Position numbers and translations under genes: made by a program. A DNA stretch of 64,000 bases, from the NCBI RefSeq assembly GCF_025526975.1, contig NW_026515672.1, forward strand, positions 806,001-870,000, read 5' to 3'. The notes below the pieces were generated by a model. That model was not told the DNA's origin. It saw only the letters and a list, made by a program, of their open reading frames with translations, and did not search any database. How positions within the stretch are numbered: position 1 is the stretch's first letter; every line of letters begins with the position of its first letter. Below, one piece after another: positions 34,675 through 64,000 of this stretch. Source of the DNA: Fimicolochytrium jonesii (taxonomy: Eukaryota).

Positions 34675-37187
34675 TCAACTCTGTGCAGTATCCGTGAAAT
34701 CGACTTCGTAGATGGGATTCTCCGTCATAGGCGCCGGGCTGATATAGAGGGGATTCTCTTGTGCCATTCGGAGTTCAGTGGCAGAGGCCTGAAGGTTCTG
34801 CACATCTTTCTTGCCCTTTCCGTATCGTGCAACCGCGAAGATTCCGGCGGAAACGACGACGGTGGTAAACGCTCCGACCGTTCCTCCGATGACTGCAGAG
34901 GTCGGGACACCACCGCCGCCACCGGTGTTGTCGGTGGTCGCGGTGCCGCCAGACGTTCCAGGGTCAGGAACGATCGCAGTCTGGCCGTTGCATAGGTCGC
35001 CGATCAACCAATCGACCACACCGCCGATAGTCACACCGTCCAGAACGTACAAAGATCCGACTTCAGTGGTGTTGCGCAAGCAAGCGATCGGTCCGCAAGG
35101 CGCTCGGTTCAATTCTAAAATTGATTGGTCCAGAGCGAAGGAATCGGTGGCAGTGGCCAAACCACCTCCGCAGATCCCTGCCGAGTTGTTTCGCAAGACC
35201 GATTGGTCATGCAGGTAAACGTGAGACCATGCACCGTCCGTGGTGATGGCGCCTCCAAACGTTGCAGCGCTGGAAAGATGTATGACGGCTTGGTTTCGTA
35301 AGGTTGTGTTGCCGGATTCGAAGTTATAAACACCACCACCACCTTGCCCGGCAACACAATTGGTTAGAGTGCAGCTGTCGGAAAGTAGGACGGATGATCC
35401 GGACTAGTCGGGTGGGCCAGACTATTAGTAAGCTCCGGGAGAAAGTTGCCAAATTGATATTGTCCTCACATTGACGATGCATCCACCATTGGCGGTAGCG
35501 GTTCCAGACAGCGTCGAACTCCCATAACATCCAAGAGTTGACTTTTCAGCAATGTACGCCACGCCACCTTTTGGTGCGCTAGCAAGGGTCACGGTCGTAT
35601 CCACCAGGTTGATCGTTGCACCAGTAGCCATAACAGCACCCCCGGCGACCGCCGAAGATGCACCGTTAATGGAGGAGCTCGTGATGTTGACGACAGCGCC
35701 AAGAGAGGCGGTGACGGCACCGGCCCCGGCCGTACCCGTGACGTTGGTAATTCGGCTGTTGCTGATGACAGTGGAGCCCGTTTGCACCTATTCGAAGAGA
35801 ACCTGGCCGTCAGGTCCTTTGCCGAATGCAACTTATTTTCGACAAATTGCCGAACCCTACCGATGCGATGCCACCGCTGACTGCCGTAAGCCCGCTGAAC
35901 GTGCATCCGTCCAGAACATGAACGCCCTCGCCATACTGGCGTGAGAGGATAGCAAAATGAGCGACATCTTCAGAGATCGCGCGAAACACACTCACACCAC
36001 TTGCCAAGACTGCACCAGTTCCAAGGGTATTGATATTGCGTACTGTAAGGTTTGTCGCACTGATCCGACTGACCGCATTTGAAGTTTCTAGCAACGAACT
36101 GGAGATGCTCGAGTCCCGGAACACAACTGACAACAAATGAACAGGCGTTAAACCAGGTTCTCCGTAGCCCGTTTTCACGGCGTTTTTCGTACCATTTTTG
36201 ATGGTCGCCGTGCTAGCTGCTGTGTTCTCGGAAGTAACATACACGCAAGCCCCGTGGGTTGCATCGACTCCCGCGCATGATCCTCCAGTCCATGTGAGTG
36301 CCGATTTCGCAGCCTGGTGATAAAGAAGAAGACGACATCAGACAATATCCACCATTACAAGCAGAATCGCCACTTCCAAATCATACAATTTGTAAGGCTC
36401 CACCATTAGTGGCAAGCGAGCTGCCACTGCCGTAGAAGTTGCAGTCCGTTGCGGTGAAGACTGAATTCGAATCTAACAGCACAGCTCCACCATCTAGAGC
36501 AACATTTGACGTAAATGTTGTTCCAGTTGCGCTTGCTGTGGAAACACCGCTGCCACCCAAGTACACAGCGCCTCCTCCTCCAGACGTTGCCCTGTTATTT
36601 GTGAAGGTTGTCGTGCTCAGAGTAAGGGAAGAGGACTTTATGACCGCGAGGGCTCCACCATATGTAGTACTGCCACTATCCGGGACCACGACGTTGTTCT
36701 TGAAGGTGCATCCCGAACACGAAAATGACGCCCCATTGATCAAGTAGGCAGCACCCCCGCTAGATGCCGTGTTGCTGTCAAAGATGACATTGATGCCGTT
36801 GAAAGTTGAACCCTTCACGTACAAAGCCCCTCCGAGAGAAGCGGGAGTTCCCGTGATATTCTTGAAGGTTGTTCTTGTCGCAACCAAGTAGGAGCCCGAC
36901 AGAATGCGCAACAGACCTTCATCGTCTGCGTCTGTAGACGCGATTCCGGTTCCGTCAATGGTCACATCCGTAAGCGTCAGCGTTGTCCCCGACGTTTTCA
37001 GACGAAGAGGGCCGCAGTTCTTGAAATTGCAGTTGGAATACGTGACACTTGACGAGAGAGTGACTTGACTGGTGTCGGTGCAGGTGTAGACCTGTCCCGT
37101 AGTGCAGGAATAGCTCGCTGTCGGCCATTTCAACGCCTGCACACCAAGGGTATATGATAAAACGCTGAGGAGGACTGCCGTACGCAT
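34675..37187 (-). CDS. Type I membrane protein: signal peptide, Pmp-like (FxxN..GGA) beta-helix repeats, one TM helix, tail with two NPxY motifs; multi-exon
   Basis: Signal peptide MRTAVLLSVLSYTLGVQA; repeats FDSNTASSGGAAY, FKNN..YGGALAV, FTNNRATSGGGGAVY and FTSNVALDGGAVL; TM AVIGGTVGAFTTVVVSAGIFAVA; tail QENPLYISPAPMTENPIYE. Confidence 0.8.
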
Positions 37188-52781: not shown

Positions 52782-54050
52782 TCAATGTCGCGCATTCAAT
52801 ACGGGGTGCTTATTCTTGTGAACCCACGGTATCCCAGACGGCGGTGGAGTGGGAAACTGGCGATAGATGACGCAGAGCTCGCAGAAAAGTCCAAAGATGA
52901 GCGTGCACAGGCCAGTGGCTATCATCGCCACTCTGCCCTGAGTCGACGTCAGCAACTGCGAGAGGCCGTCAGCGATCTGATCCCCAGACTGGCTTACGGG
53001 GTGCTTCAGTGCCTTGAATTCGAGAATGCCGACGAAGACAAATATTCCCGCTCGTCCCAAGTATCCGATGTGCCCAAGGGTGAGCAACATCCATCGCTCC
53101 CACTTCTGATTGGCCCGGCGCCAGTTAATCTCAGAATGCCATCTCTTTGTCAAGGCATTCTGCAGTTGGGTGAGGCACGCGATGAGGAACGCGACGCCCA
53201 TGAGCACGAGCATCGTGCGGCCGAGGATCGTTTCACGCCAGCAGTTCGGGTAGCAGCTTGGGGGTTTGTTTTTGTAGTTGTTGAGCAGCATAATGACGAT
53301 GTAATACGAGTATGCGATGTACACTCCTCCGCTTACGGCTGGCGAAAGTCGGAAGCGGAAGAAGTTGCCCAAGTTTGACAGCTTTGCCTATAAATGGTAG
53401 TTGATGCGATGAGGCATAGGCATTCATGGAATGCGATAAAGAACCCAACGACTGCTTACATCTCGGCCTTGATACGTGAGGCATTCCCAAAATCTCCATA
53501 TAGAATAGCACCACAGAGCTATTAGCAGCAGAACGCAGTTAGAGACTCTCTTCGAGTGTGTGAGCTGTGAGTAGCGACAAGATTCTCACCGATCAATAAA
53601 ACAAAGAGTGCTCCGGAGCCAGACTTGACGTCTCCTATCATAACAAAAGCGCCCTGTTGCGGAATCGTTCGAGGTCAGAACAAGGTTCTTGAAACAGCTG
53701 GGCAGTGAGGCAGACCGAGGTTAACCGTTACAGACCTTGGGACTCTCTTCATACTCCTTATCGTCCAACTTTGCCCCGCTGGCAACCGTCATTCCTCCTA
53801 CGAGACCGTATATGACGCCCTTCGCTCCAAAGCCAATGCGCCCTACTATCCGCTGCAATGTTGCCCACCAAGGGGACGCCGAGTCTGGGTGCTGCATGGA
53901 GTAGTACCATGCTCTGAACCCGCGCTCCACCTTGTCGCGGTATTCGTGAGCGTGGGCGGCTATATCCCCTGAGGCGCTGTGGTGAATTGCCGTGGGCAGG
54001 ACGCTGTGGTCCGCGCTCTTCTCTGCTTGTTTTGTGAAGGGATTCCTCAT
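52782..54050 (-). CDS. DUF1206-like multi-pass membrane protein; multi-exon
   Basis: Repeated units GRIGFGAKGVIYGLVG and GHIGYLGRAGIFVFVG, an intervening GR-led TM helix (LGRTMLVLMGVAF) and a terminal GLSQL...GRVAMIATGL..FGLF. Confidence 0.7.
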
Positions 54051-62165: not shown

Positions 62166-63479
62166 TCAGGCCGCCGCGGAACCAAACACCTCCGAATGAA
62201 TCCGCTCAGGATGCACTCCAATCTCTTCCAACGCCTTCCTCTGCGCATTCATGAACGGTACAGGCCCGCAGAGATAATAGTCCGCATCCGGCAACACCAC
62301 CTTCTCACTGATCCTCCTCACATCAATCCTACCCACAGTATCATAATCCACACCCTGCACGTCATCTCTGCCGACTTCCTCGTAATATACAATCTTACTA
62401 ACTTGGGGATTCTCCGAGACGACTCTGTTCAAATGATCCTTCATGGCGTGGACATGGCGATTCCGCACCGCATGCACAAACACTACAGGCCGCTCTTTGC
62501 CGTTCGCCACAACTGTGTGTAGCATCGACATCATCGGCGTGAGTCCCACGCCGCCGCTCATAAGCACGACGGGTGTCTTCGCGTTTACATCGAGTGTGAA
62601 ATCGCCGTAGGGCATGCTGACGTCCACTTCCGCGTTCTCGGGGAGGTGTTCGTGTAATACGTTGGATATCTTGCCAGCGGGTCTGGTGTCGGTGGCGAAT
62701 TCGCGTTTGACCGAGATGCGGAAATGTTCCCCGTGCGGCGTATCGGAGAGACTGTACTGGCGAGGCTGGTAGACCCCAAGCTCAGGCACAAAGCACCGCA
62801 CACTGATGTACTGTCCCGGAGCAAAAGTCGGCAGCAGGCCCTTATCAGCCGGCGCGAGATGAAACGAGACAATCTCATCGCTTTCTAGAACTTTCCGCTT
62901 CACCACGAACTTCCGCCACCCGTTCCATCTGCCCGGCATCTCCGCAGCCTTTTTGTACAGATCCCCTTCGAACGTGATGAAAATCCCGGCAAGCTGCTCA
63001 TACGCCGCCCGCCACGCCTCCATTACATCCTCCGTCACCGCGTCCCCCAACACCTCCTTAATTGAAACTAACAGCTCCTCCCCAACAACCGCATACTGCT
63101 CCGGCCGCACGCCCAGACTCGCATGCTTGTTCCCGATCCGCGACACCGCGGCGCTCAACGCCCCCAGGTTGTCGATATGCGACGCGTAGGCCCATACGGC
63201 ATGCGCGAGCGCCGCGGGCTGTGCGCCGGTCGCTTGGTGGGCGGAGTTGAAAATATTTTTGAGCGAGGGGTGGTTTTTGAGGAGGCGCTTGTAGAAATGC
63301 GTGGTGATGGCAACTCCGTGCTTGGCCAGGACGGGGGCGGTGGACTTTACGATGGCGGTTTGGGCGGGGGTGAGGGCGTGTGGGAGGGCGGTGGCGTGGA
63401 ATTGTAGCGTGCGAAGAGCGTTGGATGGTGCTCTGGCTTTGAGACGGAGGCAAGAGAGGTGGAGGTTGCGTGCAAACAT
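62166..63479 (-). CDS. Flavohemoglobin (nitric oxide dioxygenase) with a predicted mitochondrial presequence; intronless
   Basis: Globin domain (ITTHFY, IFNSAHQATGAQ, IGNKHASLGV, QYAVVGE), FAD-binding PGQYIS/RQYSLS, NAD-binding SGGVGLTPM, YLCGPVPFM and SEVFG, preceded by a leader of about 35 aa that is Arg/Leu/Ser-rich and free of acidic residues. Confidence 0.96.
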   Translation of the reverse strand: MFARNLHLSCLRLKARAPSNALRTLQFHATALPHALTPAQTAIVKSTAPVLAKHGVAITTHFYKRLLKNHPSLKNIFNSAHQATGAQPAALAHAVWAYASHIDNLGALSAAVSRIGNKHASLGVRPEQYAVVGEELLVSIKEVLGDAVTEDVMEAWRAAYEQLAGIFITFEGDLYKKAAEMPGRWNGWRKFVVKRKVLESDEIVSFHLAPADKGLLPTFAPGQYISVRCFVPELGVYQPRQYSLSDTPHGEHFRISVKREFATDTRPAGKISNVLHEHLPENAEVDVSMPYGDFTLDVNAKTPVVLMSGGVGLTPMMSMLHTVVANGKERPVVFVHAVRNRHVHAMKDHLNRVVSENPQVSKIVYYEEVGRDDVQGVDYDTVGRIDVRRISEKVVLPDADYYLCGPVPFMNAQRKALEEIGVHPERIHSEVFGSAAA

Positions 63480-64000
63480 GGTAAGCGGCGGCGCTCAAGG
63501 AAAAACGACGAGGGATGCTTGCTATAGGATACTCCTAATGAATATCAATAGATGACACAGACCGTGCATGCATATGCAATCAATAAGCTGGTTTGCCTGA
63601 ACCCCGAAGCGGCAACGCAGACCCTTTTATAAGCGGCGTCCCTTGTGGCGGTCATGTCGGACGTTTGTTGAGGTGGCAACGGAGGCTCTTCGGAACTTCG
63701 GAAAAGGAGGCGTCGGTTGGGCGCTTTTTCACATATGCAAAAAAAGACCCCATCAACAAGTTTATGCCAACTTTTCCAAAAGCGGAAATTTCAGACGCCA
63801 AGAGCTGTCCGTCCTCCACACGCAGAAGGAAAGGATATGAGCTGGAAATAAGAAGCAAAAACGGGAATGTATGTCTAGTTGTATGAAAAAAAATGTCCAG
63901 CATAAATGTCAGGCTAAGGGAAAAAACGCGTCGAGTTGACGCATTGGGGTGCGGCAGTTTCCGCGCATAGGAGTGTTCGAGAAACGGCTGTACGTCCAGG

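Follow-up and report, generated by a model that had tools for sequence, protein, structure and literature searches.

Conserved twin NPxY motifs in the tail of a predicted beta-helix surface protein of the chytrid Fimicolochytrium jonesii, a candidate talin-docking receptor

The gene and the layout of its product

The window, the whole 64,000-nucleotide stretch of DNA analysed here, comes from Fimicolochytrium jonesii, a chytrid of the Spizellomycetales and so a zoosporic fungus, as the sequence-only reading had supposed. Its minus strand carries the gene EV422DRAFT_521870 (34675..37187), the last exon of which is 100% identical to the 744-residue protein of that name. Six exons (37187-36387, 36313-36193, 36126-35996, 35935-35861, 35787-35470 and 35403-34675) make up an uninterrupted frame of 724 residues, closed by a stop codon at 34677-34675; the five introns between them are all of the GT-AG type and 60-73 nt long. 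The sole difference from the NCBI model of 744 residues (P0001) is that the latter keeps the third intron (35995-35936, 60 nt, in frame and stop-free) as coding sequence. Splicing of this intron is more likely than its retention, because the 20 extra residues are absent from all five homologues that include the ectodomain, and the corresponding stretch models poorly, with pLDDT < 50 at residues 352-372; some transcripts may nonetheless keep it as an isoform. The sixth exon encodes the transmembrane helix and tail together with the last 169 residues of the ectodomain, about 130 of which belong to the beta-helix; the tail is therefore not part of a separate gene, and its proposed attachment to the ectodomain is borne out. 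The joining of the upstream exons is suggested by colinearity with the homologue P0002 (query residues 9-675) and by the NCBI model. An artefact of reading frame was ruled out, both motifs falling in the annotated frame.

All features of the gene product are encoded on the minus strand. A putative signal peptide of about 18 residues (37134..37187), recognised from hydropathy (11-residue mean 1.98) and position only, is matched by similar N-termini in P0002, P0003 and P0006. It precedes the ectodomain (35005..37133), for which a right-handed parallel beta-helix carrying PMP-type repeats is predicted, and a short Gly/Thr-rich linker (34897..35004) of about 35 residues with pLDDT < 50. There follows what is predicted to be the only transmembrane helix (34828..34896), which contains a GxxxG motif; its hydrophobic segment, which includes GGTVG, reaches a modest peak 19-residue Kyte-Doolittle mean of 1.83. 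The predicted cytoplasmic tail (34678..34827) begins with the basic stop-transfer sequence RYGKGKK and is 50 residues long, close to the 49 or so estimated earlier from the letters alone, when the helix and the stop-transfer sequence were also recognised. Within it, a membrane-proximal NPLY (34744..34755) lies 26 residues from the C-terminus and a membrane-distal NPIY (34708..34719) lies 14 residues from it; the positions first given for these motifs, and the 8-residue spacer between them, were exact.

Across the six frames of the window, two NPx[YF] motifs separated by 4-14 residues occur in this tail only, while single motifs number 14. Using generous residue frequencies, the rough chance per 50-residue tail is 2.4e-6 for a spacer of 8 residues and 2.7e-5 if any spacer from 4 to 14 is allowed. 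Because the pattern was picked after it had been seen, conservation provides the more stringent test. At the nucleotide level, the two five-codon motif units (34758-34744 and 34722-34708, minus strand) are identical at 13 of 15 bases and stand 36 bases apart, and may represent an old internal duplication.

No adhesome genes were found near EV422DRAFT_521870 in a Pfam scan of 99 of the 169 window frames longer than 110 aa, and of four others. The gene upstream of it (43280-37981, minus strand) encodes eight tandem nucleoside diphosphate kinase domains, with eight start and eight active-site motifs; in the first domain the catalytic His is replaced by Phe, and the tail is rich in Ser and Lys. 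This is possibly a flagellar nucleoside diphosphate kinase. Elsewhere on the minus strand, a 442-codon frame at 62169-63494 combines globin and FAD/NAD-binding domains in the manner of a flavohaemoglobin, and a match to DUF1206, a family mainly of bacteria, lies at 52785-53387.

Conservation and distribution of the motif pair

A homologue search over 1.84 billion representatives identified six records, five closely related in the ectodomain and the sixth a fragment of the tail; they belong to Powellomyces hirtus (two), Thoreauomyces humboldtii (two), Gaertneriomyces sp. and Geranomyces variabilis. The sequence runs through to the C-terminus in three of the six (one each from Powellomyces, Gaertneriomyces and Thoreauomyces), and in all three the motif pair is present with its 8-residue spacer, as had been anticipated of orthologues. 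The others (P0003, P0005 and P0006) stop before the helix and tail and look truncated, one of them being labelled partial. The Gaertneriomyces model, P0004, starts with a fragment resembling a retroelement reverse transcriptase (residues 1-70; PF07727, a weak match), which is probably a wrong fusion preceding the true signal peptide.

When the four tails are aligned, 13 of 54 columns are invariant, 12 of them inside the motif core. Identity to the window protein over the core is 16/22 in Powellomyces, 15/22 in Gaertneriomyces and 21/22 in the Thoreauomyces fragment, compared with 254/597 and 180/580 over the ectodomains of the first two. In the same order of genera, the tail before the core is identical at 6/17, 2/18 and 9/19 positions, and the tail after it at 1/9, 1/9 and 2/9. 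Expressed as ranges, identity is 68-95% in the core, 31-43% in the ectodomain and 11-47% in other parts of the tail. Among all 22-residue windows of the three full-length proteins, the core has the most invariant positions (12), the ectodomain having a mean of 4.4 and a maximum of 10. The proximal NPLY is followed by an invariant Ser-Pro at Tyr+2/+3, and the distal motif, conserved as well as the proximal one, takes the form NP[IV]Y with an invariant Met-x-Glu just ahead; two glycines four apart in the transmembrane helix are likewise invariant in all four sequences. As judged from these alignments, conservation across four genera shows purifying selection on the motif pair.

The receptor family was found in five genera only, all of them in the Spizellomycetales, and therefore cannot be a general chytrid receptor; Spizellomyces itself did not appear among the close matches. 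Among the best 150 ectodomain relatives, the twin motif is present in four; one other, from the 42 whose C-terminal part includes a hydrophobic segment, has a lone NPLF. A beta-helix protein of 2346 aa with several hydrophobic segments, P0086, has one NPLF near its C-terminus. A search of the Atlas with the helix and tail retrieved only unrelated small membrane proteins (best 0.86). The suggestion that varied ectodomains might share this tail was not upheld, in that a weak search of 2549 candidates with the tail profile found just the three full-length orthologues already known.

Likeness to integrin tails and to protist and bacterial adhesins

The tail of integrin beta-1D was the best match when a profile of the four tails was compared with the PDB (3g9w_C), at a non-significant E of 0.63, and the single tail sequence found no integrin there at E up to 10. 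The best Pfam match was to Integrin_b_cyt (PF08725; E 0.026 and 0.019 in two libraries), spanning model positions 27-44 of 44 and scoring 14.7 bits, below the cut-off of 23.4. These profile matches are weak, and appear to agree in register only. In chain C of 3g9w, two NPxY motifs likewise stand 8 residues apart, with Gln-Glu before the first and Ser-Pro after it; the position of beta-1D P786 is Pro in 4/4 chytrid tails, and that of Q778 is Gln in 3/4. These two residues are described as distinguishing the tighter-binding beta-1D from beta-1A (PMC10293852).

Every database match to integrin tails being statistically weak, the resemblance might be coincidental and the motif pair simply an old 12-residue internal duplication that has no specific partner. 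The near-identity of the two five-codon units is in keeping with such an origin, but the core is far better kept than its flanks or the ectodomain in four genera, and we regard this account as highly improbable.

Several integrin features are missing from the F. jonesii protein. At Tyr-8 of the proximal motif, where integrins have Trp (Trp775 in beta-1D), all four tails have Arg, followed directly by a hydrophobic residue; the integrin Trp is described as packing on talin R358, and the W739A substitution as weakening the binding of beta-3 to talin (PMC4003243). The membrane-proximal HDR[RK]E helix has no match in the tail, and the sequence-only reading had rightly cautioned on this point and on the Trp. 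There is no vWA/betaI head with a MIDAS, the predicted model showing beta-strands throughout the ectodomain and no vWA domain being matched in Pfam; one DxSxS-like string in the ectodomain is located within the beta-helix. Nor did Pfam match a PSI domain or a Cys-rich EGF stalk, the stalk instead being Gly/Thr- or Ser/Thr-rich. Membership of the integrin beta family was rejected on the missing head and helix, the Arg for Trp and the PF08725 score.

The ectodomain contains ten GG[AG][ILVM] and four FxxN motifs, 18 Cys and seven N-glycosylation sequons. Its first exon matches PF02415 (Chlam_PMP) with 42 bits, above the cut-off of 20.6, and the whole 744-aa protein matches no family at E 0.001. 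AlphaFold2, run with seven sequences, gave a model with pLDDT 75.5 and pTM 0.74, in which an all-beta solenoid extends over approximately residues 26-630, no helix occurs ahead of residue 632 and pLDDT is mostly > 70 in the ectodomain. With this model, Foldseek returned a single match at E < 0.001, a PL6 lyase. Re-alignment of 460 chains placed Vag8 first (Z 34.7, rmsd 3.4, 393 aligned) and also pertactin (Z 29.3) ahead of epimerases, tailspikes and polysaccharide lyases (Z 22-28), and the nearest Atlas models are adhesin-like proteins with PMP repeats (TM 0.67-0.71). The beta-helix ectodomain first suggested by the letters is thus supported by the predicted model and its fold matches. The autotransporter passengers Vag8 and pertactin, the Chlamydia PMP-repeat proteins (PF02415) and the adhesin-like proteins of methanogens likewise form right-handed beta-helices with GGA(I/L/V) and FxxN repeats, whereas the F. 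jonesii protein appears to be held in the membrane by a single alpha-helix that leads into a cytoplasmic tail, rather than by a beta-barrel; its ectodomain is 7-15% identical to solved beta-helix structures.

As predicted here, the beta-helix fold by itself does not tell adhesin from enzyme. The protein could be a surface sensor of the wall or rhizoid stage, or a tethered glycan-acting protein, which serves in the walled thallus with no part in zoospore traction and whose tail recruits a signalling partner. The matches to lyases, epimerases and tailspikes would suit this role, as would the far longer Ser/Thr-rich stalks that take the place of the linker in Powellomyces and Gaertneriomyces, those of Powellomyces, at several hundred residues, being long enough to span a wall. 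However, the F. jonesii linker has just 35 or so residues, the top fold matches are non-enzymatic passengers and the nearest Atlas models adhesin-like, and the integrin-like register of the tail would be left unexplained; a role of this kind is unlikely.

A parallel in overall design is provided by SibA-E of Dictyostelium, which are likewise non-integrin, single-pass proteins with a glycine-rich or GxxxG helix and two NPxY motifs in the tail, in a host that has talin and no integrin. The binding of SibA to talin is reported to run through the proximal NPxY (PMC9197732), and SibA to transmit force (PMC12686525). In contrast to the beta-helix head of the F. jonesii protein, the extracellular part of Sib consists of a vWA domain and other repeats, and talin binding has been demonstrated for Sib while the chytrid protein is a candidate only. 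Membership of the Sib family, described by Kang et al. as seen in dictyostelids only, was rejected: the GxxxG helix and twin NPxY are present and the extracellular vWA domain is missing. The mannose-binding protein of Acanthamoeba and the Entamoeba lectin are further protist surface adhesins with integrin-like tails and talin as proposed partner (PMC12686525). These differ in having lectin heads and amoebozoan hosts, and their talin binding is also a proposal.

The talin of F. jonesii and the proposed coupling

Chytrids are described as having talin without integrin, no receptor being named in the passages concerned (PMC5042518, bioRxiv 2020.06.12.142943), and PMC5042518 asks whether an unidentified receptor replaces integrin in early-diverging fungi, which retain further adhesion scaffolds besides talin. 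A literature search, with most subscription papers outside its reach, found no fungal NPxY receptor, and found nothing on a short talin motif. One of several talin frames from metagenome contigs was used as a search query, and the best 120 of 1178 matches were examined. Among them are talins from a wide range of zoosporic fungi, across many chytrid orders, and a full-length talin of F. jonesii itself, EV422DRAFT_576151 (P0269; 2571 aa), such that the species does have the talin on which the proposal depends. Pfam assigns to it F0, FERM, IRS-type PTB, rod and I/LWEQ domains, and in a comparison with the PDB it matches talin-1 over 3-2516. Talins of the other three genera with tails were not seen among the best 120 of 1178 matches.

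The NPxY pocket of talin is described as comprising L353, K357, R358, I396, I399 and L400 (PMC4003243). At these positions the F. jonesii talin has L, R, R, I, I and I, a conserved pocket; it is kept in nearly all talins among the best 120 of 1178 matches, and its presence therefore says nothing specific about the F. jonesii tail. More unusual are Asp at position 325 (own residue 315) and Arg for Gln381 (own residue 371), the latter at a position that we take to be involved in binding the integrin helix. Among 114 in-register talins (the best 120 of 1178 matches, six dropped), Asp325 and a basic residue (Arg/Lys) at 381 each occur twice, in F. jonesii and Phlyctochytrium arcticum, and the amoebozoan talins have Pro (13) or Met (7) at 325. 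The P. arcticum talin is the closest to that of F. jonesii in the alignment of the best 120 of 1178 matches (64%); NCBI taxonomy places this species in the Chytridiales, and it has presumably since been moved to the Spizellomycetales. Talin 325 is reported to bind the membrane-proximal helix of integrin and to be required for activation, not recruitment (PMC2720171). Asp325 fits a tether that works free of activation, though with two sequences only it does not establish co-evolution with the tail. Co-folding without alignments, of residues 296-400 of P0269 (talin F3) and residues 695-744 of P0001 (the tail), gave 0.12, 0.32 and 0.31, a median of 0.31 against a mark of 0.34, and 0.00 in three controls; we weigh this result neither for nor against docking.

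We favour, with a probability of about 0.55, the reading that the F. jonesii protein is a talin-docking adhesion receptor working like SibA. The beta-helix head, going by its fold only, would recognise some glycan or protein of the substrate; the proximal NPLY, on the precedent of integrin and SibA, would dock in talin F3; and talin would hold actin by its I/LWEQ end, an arrangement like that of SibA and TalA in Dictyostelium. Surface and actin would in this way be linked without integrin, and the receptor may serve in zoospore attachment or crawling. Working as a monomer, such a receptor would not require the activation step of integrins, in keeping with its lack of a membrane-proximal helix and with the Asp found where talin would otherwise have the activating Leu325. 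Against talin docking stand the Arg at Tyr-8 in 4/4 tails, and the presence of talin in many chytrid orders (best 120 of 1178 matches) as opposed to a receptor in five Spizellomycetales genera. Against a use in adhesion, transcripts of the Orpinomyces scaffold are reported to be highest in germinating spores, and the authors preferred non-adhesion roles (PMC5042518).

The absent Trp would also suit a reading in which the motif pair is a signal for trafficking or transport. A different FERM/PTB-like protein, such as myosin 22 of the MyTH4-FERM type or an adaptor for sorting, would then recognise it and move, internalise or recycle the surface protein, with talin a bystander. Some chytrids are described as having a MyTH4-FERM myosin, with Myo22 in Spizellomyces punctatus, of the same order (bioRxiv 2020.06.12.142943), and the FERM domain of myosin-X as binding integrin tails (PMC10198623). 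The distal motif must have a partner other than kindlin in any case, a point that it shares with the integrins of pre-metazoan lineages; kindlin had been named earlier as a partner of the second motif, a claim that does not hold for a fungus if, as stated in PMC4325847, kindlin is not found outside animals. The F. jonesii tail fits poorly with the better-known sorting signals. These have the consensus [FY]xNPx[YF] of the LDL-receptor type, or a bulky hydrophobic residue at Tyr+3. At Asn-2, where the LDL-receptor type is aromatic, the chytrid tails have Gln/Thr in the first motif and Thr/Ile/Lys in the second, and the residue at Tyr+3 is not a bulky hydrophobic one in either motif; nor would a sorting signal obviously need a fixed 8-residue spacer or a beta-1D-like Ser-Pro. 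The Pmp-type surface proteins of Trichomonas reportedly have NPxY-like tail signals tied to endocytosis, for which a literature search found no paper. A trafficking role seems possible but doubtful, and it and talin docking are not mutually exclusive.

An evolutionary extension of the talin-docking reading, which we offer tentatively and hold to be doubtful, is that chytrids retained the talin-docking tail of lost integrins as a portable module on unrelated heads, here a beta-helix of bacterial-adhesin type, with talin in this lineage reduced to a pure tether by Asp for Leu325 and Arg for Gln381. Were this true, such proteins would provide the first membrane anchors of talin in fungi.

The twin-NPxY tail is real and conserved, and it makes the F. 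jonesii protein a concrete receptor candidate, with its function inferred. One species now supplies a named candidate receptor and a named talin, with predictions at the level of residues for which a peptide and one domain suffice as a test. If the talin-docking reading is true, integrin-free talin coupling extends from amoebae to fungi, and it would be the tail, not the head, that is the conserved part.
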